Notes under the pieces: generated by a model
Seen by the model: only the letters and a program-made list of their open reading frames with translations
Told to the model about the DNA's origin: nothing
Databases searched by the model: none
Translations under genes and position numbers: made by a program
In this document: positions 6,218 through 40,404 of the stretch, in pieces
Numbering within the stretch: position 1 is the stretch's first letter
Layout of the letters: each line of letters opens with the position of its first letter
Origin: Candidatus Omnitrophota bacterium
Lineage (GTDB): Bacteria > Omnitrophota > Gorgyraeia > Gygaellales > Profunditerraquicolaceae
NCBI GenBank assembly: GCA_028715415.1
Contig: JAQURX010000010.1
Coordinates: 3,668 to 67,667, forward strand
Reading direction: 5' to 3'
Length of the DNA stretch: 64,000 nt

Positions 6218-6245
6218 GGTTCTATTCACCCTTCCTGCGCCTCAA

Positions 6246-6389
6246 TAAAAAAGAGACGCTTCCACCTTAAAAAGGTTTAAGACGTCTCTGTCTTTAACAC
6301 TAAAAAAGCCCTTCCCAAAGCACTCATTGCTCTGAAAAGGGCATCATTGTCCTTAAAAAAGAAAAAGCCCCAAATTATTTTTTGGGGCT
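6246..6389 (-). terminator. Three tandem hairpin+T-tract structures on the minus strand in the leader of the porin-amt-glnB-glnN operon
   Basis: T1 AGCCCC..GGGGCT (6366-6389) followed by TTTTTCTTTTTT; T2 GCCCTT..AAGGGC (6308-6343) followed by T6; T3 AGAGACG..CGTCTCT (6252-6289) followed by T6, ending about 30 nt upstream of the porin start codon. Confidence 0.5.
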
Positions 6390-10786: not shown

Positions 10787-11929
10787 TTAAAGCCCTTTTA
10801 GCACAAACCAAAATCCAATACTAGAGATTACTCCCATCACCCCGCCGAAATAAAATGGAGCCTGGGCCCCAAGATATTTCCAAAGGATACCTGCAAATAT
10901 TGACGCAGGCAGCAAGGCAACCCCAACTAAAGTAGCATGCAAGCCAATCACTGTAGCACGCAGATTAGCAGGCGCAATGTCAGTAAGCAATGCTTTCTCT
11001 ACTCCTTCAGTAAAACCGATATACAAACCGTATACCGCAAATAAAGACCAGAGCGTATGAATCGAATTATTCATAGCAAAACCAAAATAAACAATGCCGT
11101 ACAAAAAATATCCTGCGACCAATATTTTTTTTCTCCCAATCTTATCCGACAATCGCGAAGCAGGATACGCAACTAAACCATAAACAATATTATAAGCAAG
11201 ATAAAGAAGGATGACGTGTGTAATTGTGCTGCCCATATTCTTCGCCCGTAGTAGTAAAAACTGGTTTGAAGAGTTCCCCAAAGTAAAAACAAATGAAAGT
11301 ATCAGAAATAATTTCAGCTTTTTATCCAAAGCATTCCATTTAAATTCAAGTTTCTTCTGTCCGGTAACTACCACAGATTTTTTTTCTCTTACAAAGAACA
11401 AAAAGAAAATTCCAAAGAAAGCGGGAATCAAAGAAAACAAAAATATGCTTCTTAGGTTTCCTTTGAATCTTGTTACCAGGTAATATGTCAAAGTAACACC
11501 GATAATAGCTCCAAAAGTATCCATTGCCCGGTGAAGGCCAAAGGCTTGCCCGCGTTTTGTCGCAATTGAACTATCCGCGATAAGCGCATCCCGGGGAGCA
11601 GTACGCACCCCTTTTCCAAATCTATCTATTAACCGAGCAGCTAAAACCCCTCCCCAGCTTGTTGATAAAAATAAAAATATTTTCCCTATTGTTGAACAAG
11701 AATAACCAAATATGGTAAAGGGTTTTCTTAGTTTTATCTTATCGGAGAAATAACCTGAGAATACCTTAAGCAGGCTTGCCAAACTCTCCGCTAAACCTTC
11801 AATAAAACCAAGTATTGCCGGGCTTGCACCGAGAGTTGTAACCAAAAACACTGGCAAAATAGGATAAACCATCTCGGTTGAGATGTCCGTGAGTAAACTC
11901 GTTATCCCCAATAAAAAAATATTAAACAT
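10787..11929 (-). CDS. MFS transporter
   Basis: 380 aa, 12 predicted TM segments, MFS-type loop between TM2 and TM3 (GxLaDRxGrk-like: LIDRFGKG). Confidence 0.7.
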   Translation of the reverse strand: MFNIFLLGITSLLTDISTEMVYPILPVFLVTTLGASPAILGFIEGLAESLASLLKVFSGYFSDKIKLRKPFTIFGYSCSTIGKIFLFLSTSWGGVLAARLIDRFGKGVRTAPRDALIADSSIATKRGQAFGLHRAMDTFGAIIGVTLTYYLVTRFKGNLRSIFLFSLIPAFFGIFFLFFVREKKSVVVTGQKKLEFKWNALDKKLKLFLILSFVFTLGNSSNQFLLLRAKNMGSTITHVILLYLAYNIVYGLVAYPASRLSDKIGRKKILVAGYFLYGIVYFGFAMNNSIHTLWSLFAVYGLYIGFTEGVEKALLTDIAPANLRATVIGLHATLVGVALLPASIFAGILWKYLGAQAPFYFGGVMGVISSIGFWFVLKGL

Positions 11930-28115: not shown

Positions 28116-29074
28116 TTTTTCTTCTCCAATGTGCGTAATTTTTCTTGCGCTTTCGCGGCAAATGTACTATCAGAATAATTAGTTATTACTTCATTATAAT
28201 AAATCTTTGCAGATTCAAATTGTTTTTGCTTTTCGTAAAAGCGGCCGATATTGAAGTTGGCTTCTGCCTCTTCTTCTCTGATTGCAGATATGCTTTTCTC
28301 AGCTTTATCCGATAGAATTGCCTCAGGATGCTCTTTCACGAATTCTTCAAACTTCTGCTTTGCTTCTTCGGTTGCTCCCTGATCATAATCAGCTCCGCGC
28401 GAAACTGCCTGACGACAGACAGCAATTTGGAATTTAGACGGCTCCGACCATTCGCTATCAGGATAATTTGAAATAACCTTATTAAAAGCATCCTCTGCTT
28501 CAAAATATCTCTTTAATTCCTTTAAAACTAAGCCAAGTTTATACTGTGCTTTGGGAGCAAGCGGCCCATAAGTAGAATTCTCAATTACTCTTGTAAATAT
28601 TTCTATTGAGGGGTTCTCAACCGGCAACGTTAACCCCATAGCCTTACGTTTCTCTCCCGACATAAACAACTCGCCGATTTTGTATTCACGCTCGTTTATT
28701 TCTTTTATTCTTTCTGAGAAAGGATACTTATCAATTACCTTCTGATAAGCTAAATATGCTTCGTAGGGCCTGCCTGTTTCTTCCGCAATCCGGCCTAGAT
28801 AAAACTGGCTTTCTGAAGCTTCAAAAGATTTAGGATAAGCTTTAAGCAGCTTTTTAAATTCTTTTTCCGCCTCATCATAGCTTTTTAACTCAAAAAAGTC
28901 CCTGGAAAAGGCAAATTGCTCTTTTGGAGTAGGTTTTACAGAAGATTTTGGGTTAATCCACTTTTTGCTTTTAGGCGTCCAGATCCAATAGGCATGCGCC
29001 TGGCTCGTGGTAAGCACAAAAACAACCAAAAATATTAATAAAAGCTTGCGTCTCATAGGGTTTAACTTTAACAT
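28112..29074 (-). CDS. Secreted TPR-repeat protein (BamD/YbgF-like architecture)
   Basis: Signal peptide, multiple TPR-like helical repeats (YxxAxxxYxxVIxxYP pattern). Confidence 0.55.
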   Translation of the reverse strand: MLKLNPMRRKLLLIFLVVFVLTTSQAHAYWIWTPKSKKWINPKSSVKPTPKEQFAFSRDFFELKSYDEAEKEFKKLLKAYPKSFEASESQFYLGRIAEETGRPYEAYLAYQKVIDKYPFSERIKEINEREYKIGELFMSGEKRKAMGLTLPVENPSIEIFTRVIENSTYGPLAPKAQYKLGLVLKELKRYFEAEDAFNKVISNYPDSEWSEPSKFQIAVCRQAVSRGADYDQGATEEAKQKFEEFVKEHPEAILSDKAEKSISAIREEEAEANFNIGRFYEKQKQFESAKIYYNEVITNYSDSTFAAKAQEKLRTLEKKK

Positions 29075-29109
29075 AAATTTGGGAATTTGTCAACGGAAGG
29101 TAATAAAAA

Positions 29110-29172
29110 AGAGGCGTCTATTTGATAGGCCAAGTTATCACCGATTGATAAACTTAGGCTGGAGACGCCCCT
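29110..29172 (-). terminator. Long imperfect hairpin + T-tract downstream of the giant gene (also T-run on the plus strand; likely bidirectional terminator)
   Basis: GAGGCGTCT...GGAGACGCC stem closing 29112-29168, followed by TTTTTT on plus and TCTTTTTTATT on minus. Confidence 0.45.
29140..29154. repeat. 15-bp element ACCGATTGATAAACT, 3'-UTR copy of an inverted repeat that flanks the giant gene
   Basis: Exact reverse complement of 33712-33726. Confidence 0.8.
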
Positions 29173-29175
29173 TTT

Positions 29176-32100
29176 TTAAATTCTTTTTCCCAATAAAGCT
29201 ACTCTTAAATCCTGCTCCGAAACTGCTGAATCAATAACTACCAGAATATCCTTAAGGCCTGAATCTGTGGCACAGCACCGCTCTTCTTCCATCCTTAAGA
29301 TATCCGCAATACAAGAGATTACTTTATCAATGTCTCTGTCAATATTACCTTTGTAACAGGAAGCCTGGAGGTATTCCTTGATCCTGTCAGATGAAGGAAC
29401 TATGCCTGAATTAACCAGATTCTCTATTTCCCTCCATTCTGAATTAAGGTTTATATCATTAAGCCTGCTTGCGGATGGATTACCAATGTTAACGCTTAGG
29501 CTGCTTATGGCTTGAGTAACTATTGGTAGATGACGAAAATCGATTCCGCCGAAACTTTTAGTAGCCTGTATAAGCTTTGCTTCAGGGACAACATTTCTTT
29601 CCAATTCTGGACTTTCAATAATTTTTGATTTTTGGCTCAATAAACTAACGACCCTTTTGCTGCCATCTTTCTCTTTATCTGAATACCAATCTGAACTATT
29701 CAATATTCTTTTTGCCTCTTTCAGGACAATCTTCTTAGAATTAGAAGATAACCGCTCCAAAATAAGTTCTGCCTGCTGGCCAACAATATCTAATGGACAA
29801 GCCTGAGCTATGATCAAAATATCTACCAAATTACTTCCCAACTTTGTTTTCTCAAGCTCTACTTCACCTTTTCTTGCCAATTCATACAATTCATCAAACG
29901 TTCTGCTATTATTTACGCTCCAAAAAATTCCTTCGATTGCTCTCCTGTCATCGCGCCCTGCTTCTTCTTCCCATAAATCTCTTGAAAGATACACTTCAAC
30001 AATAGCCCCCAATCCAAGATATGCTAAAGGAGTACCGTTCTTCCTTTCTTCCTCAAAGATACGATCCCAAAATCCTTTAGCTTGCGGCAATATTGCCTTC
30101 ACTACAATTTTCTGAGCACCAATCTTCTGAGCATACTCTCTTGCTGCAGACCAAAGGCCTCGGCCAATTCCCTTATCTCTGAATCTTGAAAAAACCAAAA
30201 TATCAAAAACACTCAAATAAACTCTATCCCCATATACTTCCTTAACACAAGTAATAAAACCGGCGACTTCCCCATTTTCCAAATAAACAAGATATTCATT
30301 ATTCGGATTGCCAAAAGCTTCTTGAAGTTTTTCATAAGACTTTTTTTCCGTTTCTTTATTTACCATTGCAAGATAAGAAGCAATCTGACGAATATATAAT
30401 TCATTACCTCTCACTGGCCAAACATTACCTGTTTTCTTCCTCGCAACATCCTCCTTTTGCTCTACCCTAAGAATATCCTCCATTTGCCTTGCCAATTCAT
30501 GAGCATCTTCTGGTGATATCTCCGAATGCATTTCAGCAACCCACTTAGCCATCGCTTCATGGCCAAGCCCAGCTAATATCAAACGTAAGTCATTGTTATG
30601 CCCTGCCAAATACTGATCACCTATGAATATTCTGTTACCAAGCCTTACGGGCCCGTTGATAGACCTACCGTCTAATCTTTTCATAAAAGGCTCGGCTACA
30701 ACTATTACTTCAGCGCCATTAATCCTTCCCGGGCCAAATTTATCTTCCAGCTCTTTAACTATATCCTTAGGCAAAGCTATACGCCTGGCTCCGCTTGAAT
30801 CTGCTAATCTTTGTATTGCCTCAACATCTTCTCTTGTAACATCACCTTCCAGAGCATGATCTTCATTTTTATTAGTAGGCGTAACTTTTAAACCAATGAC
30901 TGCTTTTGTCTGGCCTCCTCGAAGATCATTCTTCCCTTTGTTATATCTACTTTCTATCTCTGTAGCAAACCGATTAAAAGTGCTATAAGGAACTTCATCC
31001 TGCTGGAAATCACTCCTTAACTCATTTAACACCTCAACCGATATTCTAAAAATCCGGTCCCAATTTACGCCTTGAGGGTTACTACGGATTATCCTTGCAA
31101 GCGCTGCTCTGCCAGGAGTATGGGTATCTTCAATGCTCTTATCATTAGGCTTATTTTCCCAATTGGCAGAATGCTTTTCATATTTTGAATTAGCTGTTAT
31201 TCTTTTAACGGCATCATTGAATAAATTATTATCGCCTATTATGGATCTTAAAGATTTAAATCCATAAATATCGCATAAAAATTCATGCATAGCAGCCATG
31301 TTTTGATTAGTTAAGGTCTGATTAAATCCTTTGGAATAAAGCAATTTATGCATTGCTTCATGCGCAAAAGACCAAAAAGTTTGGTAGGAATAACCTATCC
31401 TATTTAATCCCATTACACCGACAGAATAAGCTCCTTCTATATACGCATTAAGCCGGAATGAAGACGCTGCCTTCAACAACATTGTCGTTTCTCCGCTCTC
31501 TTTAGGCAAAAGAGGCTCCGAATTCATAAGGATTGCGAACATTAGAAAATATGATTGTAATTTTGGCTCTCCAGCCAATACCAAGTCTTCGCGCAAAATA
31601 TTCTGTATTTTATTGCTTCCGCTTTCCCTGAAGAATTTTTCTGCTAAATATTGCCAATCTTCTCCTTTAATGATTTTATTTATTTCTGTTAAGTTTTGGT
31701 CTAAAAGCAAACAGGTTAATCCCAAAGCATAAGCTCTTAATTCAACAGGCATTGATTTATCTTGCCTTATACTATCTATGAATTTACGATCGTTTCTTAA
31801 GTGATACAAAATAAGATATCCGAAATCAGGGTGTTGTTTAATAAATTCTTTTGCTCCCCGGCTTTCATTTTTTGACAGAATATTAACGACTTGTTTTTGC
31901 AGGCTAATATCTGGAGTCAATAAGCCTACTAGTTTTTCTCTTTGATGGGGATAATTGTACAAAAGATTATGCAGCGCTAATGCAGACCTACGCCACAATA
32001 CACTATCTTTAGATGTCGATTTATAAGTATCTACTAGGGCATTTATCGCGAAAACATAGCCATTCTCCGCAAACCATTCAAGATGAGAATACGGAAGCCG

Positions 32101-33699
32101 TCCGAGATCTTCAACTGTAACGCCTTCTTCTTCTAACTTCACCAATGCACTAAATAACCTCTCAAAAGCATGGACCACCGGAGAGCTTTCATATTTGAAG
32201 GCAAATGTATCTGGATACTTAACCAAACGAAATAGTAAATCTAAAGCTATGTATCTTATTCTTTCCTGCTCCTTATTGGTCGTTTTGGAACGGATAATTT
32301 GTTCAAGCTTGGGGATTAATTGAAAAACTTGCCTTAACGCAGCAGGATCATTTTGAGCCTTGATTCCAAGATTAATCAGATCCTTTGCGAAAAGCTCCTT
32401 CTTATTTATCGATGGCGCAGGTTTGCTTGCAGGTATTGCTGCTAGCGCCGTAATCTTAGGTGGCTCTTCCAAAACCTTTACTTTAAACTCTGGCTGGGCA
32501 GCGCCGGATGCTTCTGTTAAAGATAACAATACCAACAAAGGAAATAAAAACTTTTTTCCTTTCCTGAAGATTTCGGATATTGTTCCGTTGGATGGGGACA
32601 AAGTTATGCGAGCCCCTGTTTTAGGATCAGTAAAAGTCTCTGCGCCAAAAGGGGGCATATTTGGCGCGATCCCGCTAATACCCCCCGAGAAATAACTCCT
32701 TATTACCTGCCCGTAGAGTGTATTTACCGAATCTTTAATATTGTATTCACCGTCTTTGAATGATTTCTGGTAAGCTTCGAAATAAGTAGATTTTGACCAG
32801 GATTCTTTGGAAGCAAGGTTTGAAGTAATAACATTCCTATCTATCAGCTTGGAATACGGATTATTTTGGCTGGAAAATCTCGACTTAAACCACTGCGCCA
32901 TGATAAGAGAATAATAAACCTGTCTTAACTGGGCATAGCGCTTTGAAGTATTAATCTCTTTGGTTAACTTTGGGATAATCAAATCCCTGATCAATTGGGA
33001 TGCGTATTCATTTAATTCTTTTAGCCTGTCATCCTTAAAGTTATAAGTTGCTGAATTCTTAAGATAATCCTGTTCCAAGCAAACCTTAAGAGTTGCCTTG
33101 TAGATATAAGCTGAGTCTTTAGTCTCACGGATAATAATCTCATCGGGAATTATCCAAGGGCGGGTTAATGTTGGGATAGTAACTTCCTCTGAACCAAAAA
33201 GCTCCCCTGCTTTTTTGTAAAGTTTGTCCCAATACTCTTTTCCTTCAGGTGTCTGTGGAGAAGTAAATCGTGCAGTATCCTTTTTAAGCTCAACGTCTGA
33301 AGCAAGCATGATCTTGCCGATTTCGGTCTGAGCAAGGTTGTCATCAATAATATCGTCTTCGGCGTCAGGACGCAGATTCACCCAGAAGCTCTCATTAGGA
33401 AGGGTTAATCCGATAAGAAAATAATCTAAAAGTATTTTACCTGAATCCTCTAACTCCTGATTGGAATGATCTTTAAGGCTTCCTTTATCAACGAGTATAT
33501 TAAAATTGTTGTTTAGGCTGTCGAAGGAAAGATATCTTAAGTGCAGGGGACGATAAACATCAGGAATTAACGTATTGCGCAATAAAGACAGACTCCCGGC
33601 AATGTCCAGCTGTCCGGCTACCTGGGCAAAACCGGATTGCTCAAATATAAGCAAAAAACAAAGCAAAAAAGCGAGTATTCTAGTAAGTTTTGTCTGCAT
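29176..33699 (-). CDS. Giant secreted multidomain protein (1507 aa) with embedded GNAT acetyltransferase domain and HExxH motif; function unknown
   Basis: Signal peptide MQTKLTRILAFLLCFLLIFEQSGFA; internal hydrophobic helix FLFPLLVLLSLTEASGAA; helical-repeat region; SFAHEAMHKLL...AAMHEF (HExxH + downstream E); GNAT motif A FRDKGIGRGLWSAAREYA with preceding beta-strand block; long C-terminal region with no recognisable motif. Confidence 0.8.
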   Translation of the reverse strand: MQTKLTRILAFLLCFLLIFEQSGFAQVAGQLDIAGSLSLLRNTLIPDVYRPLHLRYLSFDSLNNNFNILVDKGSLKDHSNQELEDSGKILLDYFLIGLTLPNESFWVNLRPDAEDDIIDDNLAQTEIGKIMLASDVELKKDTARFTSPQTPEGKEYWDKLYKKAGELFGSEEVTIPTLTRPWIIPDEIIIRETKDSAYIYKATLKVCLEQDYLKNSATYNFKDDRLKELNEYASQLIRDLIIPKLTKEINTSKRYAQLRQVYYSLIMAQWFKSRFSSQNNPYSKLIDRNVITSNLASKESWSKSTYFEAYQKSFKDGEYNIKDSVNTLYGQVIRSYFSGGISGIAPNMPPFGAETFTDPKTGARITLSPSNGTISEIFRKGKKFLFPLLVLLSLTEASGAAQPEFKVKVLEEPPKITALAAIPASKPAPSINKKELFAKDLINLGIKAQNDPAALRQVFQLIPKLEQIIRSKTTNKEQERIRYIALDLLFRLVKYPDTFAFKYESSPVVHAFERLFSALVKLEEEGVTVEDLGRLPYSHLEWFAENGYVFAINALVDTYKSTSKDSVLWRRSALALHNLLYNYPHQREKLVGLLTPDISLQKQVVNILSKNESRGAKEFIKQHPDFGYLILYHLRNDRKFIDSIRQDKSMPVELRAYALGLTCLLLDQNLTEINKIIKGEDWQYLAEKFFRESGSNKIQNILREDLVLAGEPKLQSYFLMFAILMNSEPLLPKESGETTMLLKAASSFRLNAYIEGAYSVGVMGLNRIGYSYQTFWSFAHEAMHKLLYSKGFNQTLTNQNMAAMHEFLCDIYGFKSLRSIIGDNNLFNDAVKRITANSKYEKHSANWENKPNDKSIEDTHTPGRAALARIIRSNPQGVNWDRIFRISVEVLNELRSDFQQDEVPYSTFNRFATEIESRYNKGKNDLRGGQTKAVIGLKVTPTNKNEDHALEGDVTREDVEAIQRLADSSGARRIALPKDIVKELEDKFGPGRINGAEVIVVAEPFMKRLDGRSINGPVRLGNRIFIGDQYLAGHNNDLRLILAGLGHEAMAKWVAEMHSEISPEDAHELARQMEDILRVEQKEDVARKKTGNVWPVRGNELYIRQIASYLAMVNKETEKKSYEKLQEAFGNPNNEYLVYLENGEVAGFITCVKEVYGDRVYLSVFDILVFSRFRDKGIGRGLWSAAREYAQKIGAQKIVVKAILPQAKGFWDRIFEEERKNGTPLAYLGLGAIVEVYLSRDLWEEEAGRDDRRAIEGIFWSVNNSRTFDELYELARKGEVELEKTKLGSNLVDILIIAQACPLDIVGQQAELILERLSSNSKKIVLKEAKRILNSSDWYSDKEKDGSKRVVSLLSQKSKIIESPELERNVVPEAKLIQATKSFGGIDFRHLPIVTQAISSLSVNIGNPSASRLNDINLNSEWREIENLVNSGIVPSSDRIKEYLQASCYKGNIDRDIDKVISCIADILRMEEERCCATDSGLKDILVVIDSAVSEQDLRVALLGKRI

Positions 33700-33711
33700 T
33701 TTGAAACGAAC

Positions 33712-33726
33712 AGTTTATCAATCGGT
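33712..33726. repeat. 15-bp element AGTTTATCAATCGGT, 5'-UTR copy (12 nt upstream of the giant-gene ATG) of the flanking inverted repeat
   Basis: Reverse complement equals 29140-29154. Confidence 0.8.
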
Positions 33727-33794
33727 AATATAAATATATATTATTAATAATATATTACAATGCGATATCAGGGGGTTTTTGAAAGGGTTTTCTT

Positions 33795-35204
33795 TTAAAA
33801 ACTAATCCATGCTGCAGGCAGGTTTGAAAGGAAAATGTTGACTTTCAATAACATATTTACCAACAATTCGAGGACTGGAGCAAACGGTATAACATTAAGA
33901 AAACCAATGGCTTGTGTAAAAATAAGGCCGAATCCGCACAGAGTAATTAATGTGGCTAAAGGCACTACAAAAATATTTGCCAGGACAGTTATAGGAGAAA
34001 ATATCCTAAAGTTAGCAAGGATAATCCCAGCAGTGCCAATCCAGGCAGAAAACGAAACAAGCAGGTTATCAACAATATACCGGCCTGCGGGAAATTTGAG
34101 CTTCTCTATCCTGATCAACTTTTTTAATCTAGGGTATAAGAAAATAATCGCGAATACGCTGGCAAATGACAATTGAAAGCCGATATCAAATAATTGCAAG
34201 GGATTTAGCGATAAGATAAACAAAGCTGCCAGGCTTAATGAGTAATAAACATCGGGCTCTCTTTTAATAAGATAACCCGACAGAAAAAATATCGCCATAA
34301 TTGTCGCCCTTAAGACCGGATTGCTTGCCCCAGTCATAAAACAATAGGTAATAACAAAAAGGATTGTAAAGACTATCCTTGGCTTTCGCTTCAACCTTAA
34401 TAATTTTAAAAGCAAATTCGTAATAAAAGCCACTATTCCTACATTAAAACCGCTTACCACTAACACATGCACGGTGCCGGTTTTCATCATAACATTGTTG
34501 ATCAATGGGGGAACATTTCTTTTTTCTCCTAAAACCATGGCGCTTGTAATGCCGGCTGACAAATTAGAAAGATGGTTTCTAATCGTGCTTTGTGCCTTAT
34601 CCTTAAGCCAATAACTAAATCTTTTAAAACTTGCATTACTAGATTTTATTCTTTGAGGAGGAAATCTCACAGACAGGATTTCATAAACTCCCTGGTTAGA
34701 CAAATATCTCTTATAACTTTGCCTTCCGGATTGGGTATAATCCGTCGGGTAATGGATATTCCCGGTTAACAGCAATTCCTCTCCATAAATATAGGCATCA
34801 GTGCTTTCAAAACGAACAAAAATTTTTCCACAACAGTCAAATCCATGTTTTCCAAATTGTAACTGTTTAGTTTCAAAAATAAACGACTGACTATTATTTC
34901 CGACATTTGGCTCGCTTGCGATATTTCCTTTAATCCTAAAATATTGCTCTGAGTCAGATCAGGTGAATCTTGAAATGTGGCATTTAGGCAGGATTTGATA
35001 ATTCTTAAAATGAAGAAACCCAAGAATAATTACGATAAAGCATAATAAAATATCAAAATAACCTTTGTGTTTGGTCAATCGCCACGCAAAGAAAAGAATA
35101 AACAAGAGGACTATTGCAAAATAAATAAACCCAAACTCCAGCCTGCTTGCAATTAACACGCCTAAACAAAAACAAAGAATTAGTATGCACAAAGGACGTT
35201 TCAT
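33795..35204 (-). pseudogene. comEC: ComEC/Rec2 DNA-uptake channel (short form without metallo-beta-lactamase domain) interrupted by one in-frame TGA
   Basis: A single reading frame from ATG 35204 gives N-terminal TMs (MKRPLCILILCFCLGVL...), then TGA at 34959-34961 (...KCHISRFT*SDSEQYFRIKGNIASEPNVGN...), then the OB-fold and competence domain (GTVHVLVVSGFNVGIV) to 33795. The ORF track splits it into 81-aa and 326-aa pieces. Confidence 0.65.
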
Positions 35205-39458: not shown

Positions 39459-39531
39459 GGGGCTGTAGCTCAGCTGGGAGAGCACTTGCATGGCATGCAA
39501 GGGGTCAGGAGTTCAATCCTCCTCAGCTCCA
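39459..39531 (+). tRNA. tRNA-Ala (anticodon GGC)
   Basis: Cloverleaf folded by hand: acceptor GGGGCTG/CAGCTCC with the G3:U70 Ala identity pair, anticodon loop atGGCat, TTCAATC T-loop, 73 nt, CCA not encoded. Confidence 0.85.
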
Positions 39532-39620
39532 CAAAATTTTTCGGACAACGAAAAATTTTGTGGCACTGAAGCGAGCGTTAAACGGCGCGACAAGCGCCGT
39601 AGCGAGCGGGAGTGCCACAA
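39529..39620 (+). other. Highly structured inter-tRNA spacer: 14-bp hairpin CACAAAATTTTTCG-gacaa-CGAAAAATTTTGTG plus GC-rich nested hairpin (GTGGCACT...AGTGCCAC enclosing ACGGCGC-gacaa-GCGCCGT); both apical loops GACAA
   Basis: Inverted repeats read directly from the sequence. Confidence 0.4.
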
Positions 39621-39631
39621 ATTATTCTTTC

Positions 39632-39714
39632 GCCGGAGTGGCGGAATGGCAGACGCAGCAGCCTCAAAAGCTGCCGAGGGCAACCTCATGGGGGTTCAAG
39701 TCCCTTCTCCGGCA
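39632..39714 (+). tRNA. tRNA-Leu (anticodon CAA), class II with long variable arm
   Basis: Acceptor GCCGGAG/CTCCGGC, anticodon loop ctCAAaa, 16-nt variable arm CGAGGGCAACCTCATG, discriminator A; 83 nt. Confidence 0.8.
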
Positions 39715-39720
39715 TTTTTT

Positions 39721-40404
39721 ATGAATAAAACTAAGCGCATTCAATGGACGCATGAACTCGCTTACGCTGTTGGCCTCATCACCACTGACGGGAATTTATC
39801 CCCAGACAAAAGACATATTCAATTTACAACTACAGACCACCAACTCGCCGAACAGTTCAATAGATGCTTAAACATTAACAGCAAAATCCAATTAACCCCT
39901 CCCTCTGGCTTTGGTAAAAAATCTGCATATAGAATTAATTTTAGCAATGTAAAACTATACAGGTGGCTTGAACAAATCGGCTTAAAACCAAGAAAAACAC
40001 ATTCTCTGGGAATAATAAAAACTCCTAAGAAATACTTTCCTGATTTTTTAAGAGGACATTTGGATGGCGATGGTTCAATATTTACCTATAAAGATAAATA
40101 TATGAACTACAAAAGACGCCGTTATACATACTCGCGCACATATACGGCATTTAATTCTAGTTCTTTTAAACACATCAATTGGATCAGAAATAATTTAAGG
40201 AAAGAATTAAATATTAAAGGGGCTTTAAATTCTTGGCTAAAACCGGAAAGAACTGTACCATTGTGGACACTAAGATTTGCTAAAAAAGACTCGTTTAAAT
40301 TATTACGCTGGCTCTACTATAAACCCAATCTATCATGTTTATCCCGCAAAAGAGAAATTGCTGAACAATTTCTAAAAAGCATTCATAAGAATATTAGAAT
40401 TTAA
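39721..40404 (+). CDS. Free-standing double-motif LAGLIDADG homing-endonuclease-family protein
   Basis: MNKTKRIQWTHELAYAVGLITTDGNL (motif 1) and FLRGHLDGDGSI (motif 2) about 100 aa apart, the single-chain LAGLIDADG architecture. ATG at 39721 is 7 nt after the tRNA-Leu 3' end. The ORF-track entry 39490..40404 is an artefactual upstream extension across the tRNAs. Confidence 0.8.
   Translation: MNKTKRIQWTHELAYAVGLITTDGNLSPDKRHIQFTTTDHQLAEQFNRCLNINSKIQLTPPSGFGKKSAYRINFSNVKLYRWLEQIGLKPRKTHSLGIIKTPKKYFPDFLRGHLDGDGSIFTYKDKYMNYKRRRYTYSRTYTAFNSSSFKHINWIRNNLRKELNIKGALNSWLKPERTVPLWTLRFAKKDSFKLLRWLYYKPNLSCLSRKREIAEQFLKSIHKNIRI

Follow-up and report, generated by a model that had tools for sequence, protein, structure and literature searches.

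The largest open reading frame (ORF) in a 64,000-nucleotide (nt) stretch from a Candidatus Omnitrophota bacterium (contig JAQURX010000010.1 of assembly GCA_028715415.1, positions 3,668 to 67,667 of the forward strand; hereafter the window) encodes a protein of 1507 amino acids (aa) and is bracketed by a perfect 15-bp inverted repeat, one copy of which sits in the predicted short leader of the gene and the other in the loop of its predicted transcription terminator. Here we compare this arrangement with that of related genes in other genomes and show that the complementarity between leader and terminator loop is kept by compensatory evolution, is strand-specific in the manner of RNA pairing, consistently connects the 5' end with the terminator loop, and is specific to one gene family. 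The reading that we find the most convincing, and consider probable, is RNA pairing of the 5' leader with the transcript's own terminator loop, with the window repeat representing one copy of a conserved RNA device of an Omnitrophota gene family.

Results

The 15-mer ACCGATTGATAAACT occurs exactly at positions 29140-29154 (+) and 33712-33726 (-) of the window, and these two sites are its sole matches there even when up to two mismatches are allowed. The repeat extends to 19 nt with 18 of 19 positions identical (29136-29154 vs. 33712-33730), the single mismatch becoming a U·G wobble on the mRNA; no third copy of the 19-nt repeat is present in the window at up to three mismatches, and none of 100 shuffled sequences gave two matches. 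The 5' copy of the 15-mer ends 12 nt upstream of the ATG and the 3' copy starts at +22 past the stop codon, so that both the perfect repeat in the two untranslated regions (UTRs) and its placement stand as described in an earlier, sequence-only reading of this DNA. The same holds for the lack of a Shine-Dalgarno (SD) sequence at the gene start: the 12-nt spacer GTTCGTTTCAAA contains no SD-like tetramer, as compared with 29 of 50 window ORFs that have one within 20 nt of their start. Nor is the 15-mer a high-copy genomic repeat, the outcome which that reading had named as damaging, as the 167 fetched loci (2 Mb) contain it only in the organism's own Logan contig, again at these two sites. The reading's estimate of a chance match (about 1e-5), on the other hand, was too optimistic and ignored multiple testing: 1 of 1063 unrelated ORFs reaches a comparable helix score (at least 13), and the empirical chance of a comparable 5'/3' helix is about 1e-3 per gene, or about 0.05 per 60-gene window. 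Taken without homologues, the placement of the two copies is therefore only suggestive; we regard the repeat as non-random because the same arrangement recurs in homologues.

The 1507-aa protein carries a signal peptide, a hydrophobic segment near aa 385 and a GNAT domain at aa 1118-1212, and alignment resolves it into a conserved N-domain (about aa 26-340), a variable middle, and a conserved C-terminal domain of about 130 aa (GGIDFR..PIVTQA...). More than 800 proteins match only its first ~350 residues, at 55-73% identity, and feature very different Pfam domains beyond them. Family members were fetched by N-domain similarity, yielding a census of about 50 complete genes, and for each the 45 nt upstream of the start were searched for helices with the 140 nt downstream of the stop. 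In 15 of 47 distinct complete family genes the leader can form an ungapped helix of 11-19 bp with the gene's own 3' flank (helices of 11-15 bp in L162, L096, L152, L103, L084, L109, L106, L100, L122, L128, L165, L135, L092, and L082), and in every one of the 15 the 3' arm lies inside the same type of terminator. In four further loci (L094, L113, L134, and L120) the partner is found 324-1268 nt past the stop codon, in a canonical terminator loop beyond an extra gene, which encodes an IS630-type transposase in L094 and a barstar-family protein in L113 and L134. Because the partner in these loci sits in the operon-end terminator, it tracks the end of the transcript rather than the stop codon. Altogether, about 19 homologous genes in other genomes keep the leader/terminator-loop complementarity while its sequence changes, with at least 11 unrelated paired sequence types, each matched by its own complement: the window type ACCGAUUGAUAAACU, UUCAGGUUAAUAGAU, GGCUGAUARACC variants, UAGACUGGUAAGU, CCGGUAGGCUUUAA, CGGUUGAGAGAU, GCUGGGGAAUCC, CCCCAUAGGCU, GCUGAUGGGUUCU, GCUCAAGAAGCU, and GGCCGCGA.

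Several loci show the family's 5' and 3' ends in other settings. The 3' UTR in L094 (4496-5607) contains the IS630-type (DDE_3) transposase gene together with an upstream helix-turn-helix-like ORF, and its leader/anti-leader match is intact. The barstar-family (RNase inhibitor) genes of L134 (6304-6594) and L113 (4353-4967) lie between family gene and terminator on the same predicted transcript, which hints that some family members may carry toxic C-terminal cargo along with an immunity gene, like polymorphic toxins. In one subgroup a terminator-like element comprising P1, P2 (the outer and inner stems described below), and an anti-leader GGUUUGCCAGCCG matching the leader CGGCUGGCAA is found inside the ORF (L110 10371-10435, L111 4794-4858, L112 2977-3042, L123 1448-1508, L125 1468-1528, and L139 11182-11245). 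This element is in frame, follows the N-domain directly at about 1.2 kb from the start, and has no U-tract; it resembles a relic of read-through that once fused an N-domain gene to the cargo downstream of it.

As a control, the same helix search was extended to all ORFs of 150 aa or more in the fetched DNA. Helix scores of at least 11 were obtained for 13 of 48 family genes vs. 19 of 1063 others (Fisher p = 6e-11) and scores of at least 13 for six of the 48 vs. a single one of the 1063, with the few unrelated high scorers being AT-rich or repeat-associated. Leaders also find a stronger best helix in their own 3' flank than in permuted flanks (z = -5.7, 0 of 20000 permutations). For the mismatches only a strict count was kept, as equal scoring of all mismatches runs the helices into random flanks and adds noise helices from SD-type family members; whole-window RNAduplex scoring is likewise noisy (background about -16 kcal/mol) but still significant overall. 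All five mismatches interior to the helices, with at least three Watson-Crick pairs on each side, are sense-strand G·U or U·G and none is A·C, and such sense-strand G·U pairing is the signature of mRNA pairing and not of duplex-DNA recognition.

Helices of 11-15 bp have duplex energies of -18 to -21.6 kcal/mol, with one 8-bp outlier at -16.0; AU-rich helices are longer and GC-rich ones shorter. In the window the 15-mer duplex amounts to -20.2 kcal/mol and the 19-mer duplex to -24.9. The uniform energies suggest a tuned stability, and that the functional helix in the window is the 15-mer that begins at the predicted transcription start.

The 3' copy is part of an intrinsic terminator hairpin on the minus strand (fold -30 kcal/mol, z = -4.46), which consists, in order, of an A-tract, GGGGCGUCU, an interior, AGACGCCUC, and UUUUUUAUU (U6AUU), thus placing a GC-rich stem-loop with a U-tract directly downstream of the 1507-aa gene; it was missed by a simple terminator scan because its loop is long. 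An alignment of 12 such 3' elements shows compensatory changes in the outer stem P1 and a covarying inner stem P2 of 4-7 bp (GCCU/AGGC, CCUUC/GAAGG, CCUUUU/AAAAGG, GUCUUUU/AAAAGAC), which closes a loop of usually 17-25 nt with the anti-leader on its 5' side. In the window the anti-leader also forms a weak local apical hairpin in the fold (-7.2 kcal/mol). A covariance model built from this alignment (R1) gives a single hit in the window (Table 1), hits located after family genes in the family loci, and, in 1.09 Mb of syntenic DNA chosen without regard to the family, one strong (L054) and two weak hits (L072 and L076), each again directly after a family gene. A search of Rfam 15 over positions 28900-34000 returned only four chance-level hits (E >= 3), none of them in the UTRs and none to hok/Sok. 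The 3' element is a conserved, family-specific RNA structure.

Two related observations concern the shape of this element. A terminator with a similar outer stem, an inner CCUU/AAGG stem (GAGACGUCUUAAACCUUUUUAAGGUGGAAGCGUCUCUUUUUUAUU), and only a tiny loop is found at about 6230-6290 (-) of the window, within the 80 nt upstream of the ORF starting at 6229, so that the two-stem shape may be common in the source genome and only the large anti-leader loop special to the gene family. In L122 a second, weaker 3' element with a different anti-leader, GGCUUCUUAACCC, stands in tandem after the first terminator (10845-10920) and may be a remnant of the 3' end of another family member.

At the other end of the gene, a consensus scan locates a σ70-like pair upstream of the 5' copy (TTGTAA-16-TATATT, 33760..33733), and the 5' arm begins 2-6 nt past its promoter-like -10. 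The helix-bearing family genes share a common promoter, with a -35 of CCTTGAA or TTGTAA followed by ...CTTACCTATATAGCATACT, and in 18 homologues a -10 of CATACT, TATACT, TAAACT, or TATATT lies 7-17 nt upstream of the helix start, which would put the start of the helix at about +1 to +10 of the family mRNAs. From the end of the helix to the AUG the distance is -2 to 26 nt: it is at most 13 nt in half of the cases, and in one the AUG itself is covered. An SD is absent from all leader-pairing family genes, and where a family member does have a clear SD (AGGAGG), its promoter is of another kind and the helix is missing; the pairing device is therefore associated with SD-independent starts.

Table 1. 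Features of the 1507-aa gene and its flanks (window coordinates), in order of transcription
Feature	Position	Strand	Basis and remarks
Putative -35, TTGTAA	33755..33760	-	Consensus scan; family has CCTTGAA/TTGTAA at the equivalent place
Putative -10, TATATT	33733..33738	-	Consensus scan; predicted start ~33725-33727, the first bases of the 15-mer
5' arm (leader), UAUUACCGAUUGAUAAACU	33712..33730	-	Perfect 15-mer part 33712-33726
Spacer of 12 nt lacking an SD, GUUCGUUUCAAA	33700..33711	-	Followed by AUG at 33697-33699
Coding sequence, 1507 aa	29176..33699	-	Largest ORF in the window
Family-specific 3' RNA element (terminator with anti-leader in loop)	29101..29175	-	Covariance model R1, 62.4 bits, E = 1.8e-13
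P1 5' arm, GGGGCGUCU	29163..29171	-	Preceding A-tract, including the stop codon, lengthens the stem
P2 5' arm, GCC	29157..29159	-	Pairs with 29129-29131 in the fold
3' arm (anti-leader), AGUUUAUCAAUCGGUGAUA	29136..29154	-	Within the region enclosed by P2
P2 3' arm, GGC	29129..29131	-	Fold
P1 3' arm, AGACGCCUC	29111..29119	-	Fold
U-tract, UUUUUUAUU	29102..29110	-	Predicted 3' end of the transcript
Conserved promoter of the downstream TPR/BamD-like gene, TTGACAAA...TATGTTAAAGT	29065..29093	-	Ancestral side of the insertion

A Candidatus Omnitrophica metagenome-assembled genome has an annotated protein identical to that of the window gene. The N-domain of this protein (window 32680-33620, -) features dozens of invariant residues across the family and has neither a Pfam or NCBIfam hit nor, as a predicted model, a significant fold match in the PDB, the best structural hits being nonsignificant ones to ClyA/NheA-type pore-forming toxins; the C-terminal domain (29179-29590, -) is likewise conserved and unannotated. 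A search by the variable middle (aa 420-1380) yielded no true orthologue of the gene with flanks, only a fragment contig (P0121) and a protein (P0122/L167) that has neither the family N-domain nor the 3' element. The latter, at L167 6001-9675, is a 42%-identical relative of the variable middle, also without the special leader, consistent with cargo modules that may move in and out of the family's 5'/3' frame.

On the minus strand the gene is flanked, in order, by leuS, a comEA-like gene, and comEC on one side and by a TPR/BamD-like gene, lptE, and a holA-like gene on the other. In 80 related Omnitrophota genomes the order is leuS-comEA-comEC-TPR-lptE-holA: about 60 of them have comEC next to the TPR gene, 15-150 nt apart, about 12 have other, unrelated insertions at this junction, and none has the 1507-aa gene there. 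In light of this absence the gene is a lineage-specific insertion into a variable spot. The insertions at the junction, of 0.9-7.6 kb (L005, L008, L010, L015, L024, L036, L041, L047, L078, L079, and L080), mark it as a hot spot. The promoter of the TPR gene, TTGACAAA-N13-TATGTTAAAGTT, is kept immediately downstream of the terminator; in almost all of the 80 genomes it lies only 8-10 nt before the ATG (window 29056-29093 (-); L002-L081), which implies that the TPR/BamD-like mRNA would be leaderless or nearly so. The true start of this gene is probably the ATG at 29056-29058, as the first ATG of the ORF (29074) falls inside the -10 box. Elsewhere in the window, genes for tRNA-Ala(GGC) and tRNA-Leu(CAA) are found at 39459-39532 and 39632-39714 (+), and both are overlapped by an ORF at 39490..40404 (+), which makes that ORF or its start doubtful.

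Discussion

In light of the results presented here, we propose that the 1507-aa gene is transcribed from its own σ70-type promoter into an mRNA that would start at or within a few bases of ACCGAUUGAUAAACU and carry a short, SD-less leader, and that transcription would stop 4.6 kb further on at the intrinsic terminator, whose stems P1 and P2 would enclose a large loop with the exact complement of the leader. After synthesis of the 3' end, the leader could pair with this loop over 15 bp (about -20 kcal/mol), displacing the local hairpin of about -7 kcal/mol while P1 stays formed, so that the finished transcript would be closed on itself. From the sequence comparisons we infer that such pairing takes place in cells, either in cis or via a stable 3' fragment. 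The consequence we prefer is that it may control the accessibility of the 5' end on finished transcripts, because the helix is 5'-terminal and usually falls within the ribosome footprint at an SD-less start: fewer new ribosomes would load, as initiation there would require an unpaired leader, and 5'-end-dependent RNases would no longer find the 5' end exposed; the net effect may be either repression or stabilization. Two other mechanisms were considered and judged unlikely, namely hok-like activation by 3' trimming, as the anti-leader is protected between GC-rich terminator arms, and stop-to-start ribosome recycling, as the partner lies far from the stop codon in four loci.

Several points weigh against pairing between leader and terminator loop as we describe it. 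Energetically, a loop-leader helix with P1 intact is a pseudoknot, which folding tools cannot score, and nested cofolding of the UTRs gains only -0.7 to -5.1 kcal/mol; the G·U asymmetry comprises five positions only (p ~0.03). Both the transcription start and the 3' end of the 1507-aa gene are predictions from sequence, and pairing in cis would depend on a start not downstream of the 15-mer, the full 15 nt of which may not all be part of the mRNA; TGATAAACT, within the 15-mer, also resembles an extended -10 element. Across the family, the spread of helix-to-AUG distances makes no single translational mechanism evident, about a quarter of the genes with a class-A promoter show no helix (several of these being truncated), and the comparison is one among paralogues or distant homologues, with no orthologue with flanks.

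Of the other explanations, one retains the RNA pairing but moves it to trans: the terminator hairpin would survive mRNA decay as a 3'-UTR-derived small RNA (sRNA), the loop of which pairs with the leaders of new mRNAs in a gene-specific negative feedback. Display of the anti-leader in an apical loop on stable stems is indeed the geometry of antisense RNAs, leader codes that differ among family members would prevent cross-talk between paralogues, and OppZ/CarZ provide a precedent (PMC7398697). Codes would diversify by compensatory drift alone as well, however, and neither a processing site nor an sRNA promoter is visible in the sequence, and we hold this variant to be rather unlikely.

The sequence-only reading had proposed an mRNA duplex between the two UTRs, serving to gate translation or to stabilize the long transcript, and, as alternatives, terminal inverted repeats (TIRs) of a single-gene cassette or paired operator sites. 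Its duplex is favored by the ~19 homologues and by the G·U pairs, although the partner, a terminator loop, had gone unseen, while both alternatives now fit poorly. For arms acting at the DNA level, whether as TIRs of a mobile cassette, integron-like sites, or repeats of an invertible segment, speak two facts: they flank the whole gene, and about 60 related genomes lack this gene at the corresponding comEC|TPR junction, where about 12 genomes carry other insertions. But the arms are internal to the conserved unit, with the promoter ahead of the 5' arm and with P1, P2, and the U-tract beyond the 3' arm, and a promoter-to-terminator unit of this kind is not what TIRs would delimit, even though the gene itself is a lineage-specific insertion. 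Furthermore, no target-site duplication is evident by eye at the junctions (no systematic search was made), the window gene has no recombinase, transposase, or integrase among its neighbors, the two copies in the window have no others in 2 Mb of related DNA, the arm sequence varies between family members with its mismatches being sense-strand G·U, and only a single orientation is seen in a few independent assemblies (window vs. L001; four pairs identical on both flanks). A TIR-bounded transposable element or miniature inverted-repeat transposable element was rejected on the internal position of the arms, their two copies, and the missing neighboring transposase, with target-site duplication judged by eye, and an integron gene cassette (attC) on the gene's own conserved promoter, the lack of a nearby integrase, and the lack, by eye, of RYYYAAC/GTTRRRY core sites; overall we deem a DNA-level role quite improbable.

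A comparably slim chance attaches to the idea that TGATAAACT is itself an extended -10 promoter 12 nt before the ATG, making the mRNA nearly leaderless and the 3' copy its duplicate, such as an antisense promoter or a fossil. Its TGnTAnnnT fits the consensus and resembles TGTTAAAGT of the neighboring TPR promoter, and several promoter-proximal window genes have a -10 only 7-9 nt before the ATG. This was considered first, with the 15-mer falling outside the mRNA, and was rejected on the homologue sequences and the conserved upstream promoter: the pairing segments of homologues (UAGACUGGUAAGU, CGGUUGAGAG, and CCCCAUAGGCU) are unlike any -10 and always lie 7-17 nt downstream of a conserved -35/-10 pair, and on the plus strand the 3' copy has no -35/-10 context upstream.

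Still less probable are two operator sites for a DNA-binding regulator that loops promoter and terminator DNA together. The 3' copy does contain a perfect 6+6 palindrome (TTATCA-N5-TGATAA, 29135-29151), but it is broken in the 5' copy, is accounted for by the local RNA hairpin, and is absent in homologues, in which the paired sequence is wholly different; the pattern is barely enriched in the window (14 found vs. 7 expected at up to two mismatches), with no other convincing intergenic site, and operators sit badly with a sequence that varies between paralogues and tolerates G·U. Least credible of all is coincidence, in which an AT-rich leader happens to match a terminator hairpin. A sequence of 64 kb should contain a few 15-mer repeats somewhere, and of 1063 unrelated ORFs one scores similarly, but ~19 homologues show the same arrangement in differing sequence, and it is strongly enriched in the family.

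Long-range pairing between 5' and 3' UTRs has precedents in bacteria, and, as in hok, icaR, and hbs, the segments described here are complementary across one unit; they also change in a compensatory manner in homologues. Judging by these three precedents, pairing of this type can limit ribosome loading, shield the 5' end from RNases, or do both. In the hok mRNA of the hok/Sok system of plasmid R1, covariation-supported pairing of the 5' end with a 3'-terminal element keeps the full-length mRNA closed, stable, and poorly translated (PMC9841398). The likeness to its tac/fbi pairing lies in the very 5' end of an mRNA that pairs with the 3'-terminal element of the same transcript; hok, however, is a tiny toxin gene with an antisense Sok, an overlapping mok frame, and activation by 3' exonucleolytic trimming, whereas the family mRNAs are 3-11 kb long, have no antisense partner that we could see, and bury the 3' arm between GC-rich terminator arms. 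A hok/Sok type I toxin-antitoxin system was rejected for the window on the length of the coding sequence (1507 aa) and the lack of an Rfam hok/Sok hit in 28900-34000.

In Staphylococcus aureus a 3'-UTR segment of the icaR mRNA pairs with its own 5' UTR and controls translation and decay (PMC3868564). There, a UCCCC anti-SD in a long 3' UTR masks the SD, unlike the family device, which targets an SD-less, 5'-terminal leader, has its arm in a terminator loop, and is diversified family-wide; with no SD in the window leader and a helix that ends 12 nt before the AUG, an anti-SD 3' UTR of the icaR type was dismissed. The Bacillus subtilis hbs mRNA has a 14-bp 5'/3'-UTR helix that modulates RNase access to the leader (PMC5737220). 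The helix lengths are similar, but hbs is a single short housekeeping mRNA with a strong SD, for which no family-wide covarying code or terminator-loop display is reported. Finally, the OppZ/CarZ RNAs of Vibrio cholerae derive from terminator-containing operon 3' ends and pair with the 5' part of their own mRNA in gene-specific feedback (PMC7398697). Unlike the pairing proposed for the window, they act in trans after RNase E processing, together with Hfq and through a single-stranded seed upstream of the terminator.

A parallel also exists among viruses, in that the cyclization sequences of flaviviruses, with ~10-11 nt of 5'-3' complementarity that covaries between lineages, close an RNA of ~11 kb; there, in contrast to the family device, the pairing serves the replication of a eukaryotic RNA virus genome. 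Our literature searches returned single-gene precedents only, and nothing on this arrangement or on the gene family in Omnitrophota. The kind of interaction, long-range 5'/3' UTR pairing, is thus known; what is new is the display in a terminator loop, the family-wide diversity of codes, their near-constant energy, and the link to very long, SD-less mRNAs.

A bolder extension, which we find possible but rather doubtful, is that the family as a whole, made up of secreted or membrane-anchored multi-enzyme proteins, employs a sequence-addressed closed loop for very long mRNAs, in which private codes of nearly constant strength (about -20 kcal/mol), one per member, mark complete transcripts, license or shut ribosome loading at an SD-less start, and protect both RNA ends. 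As a code would form only once the terminator has been transcribed, it would mark complete transcripts as such. If this is true, the closed loop would be a bacterial functional counterpart of eukaryotic mRNA circularization and of flavivirus cyclization, and the private codes would keep paralogues independent of one another.

The at least 11 codes constitute a natural compensatory series, and the arrangement as a whole provides a testable model of how bacteria might handle very long mRNAs differently once these are complete. The element is a new RNA motif for annotation, its natural orthogonal RNA pairs could find reuse in synthetic biology, and the unannotated protein family, in which conserved domains at both termini frame an exchanged enzymatic cargo and barstar genes are occasional neighbors, deserves study in its own right. 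Together, the data present a known principle of UTR pairing that, in an uncultivated phylum, is built into an entire gene family and evolves within it.

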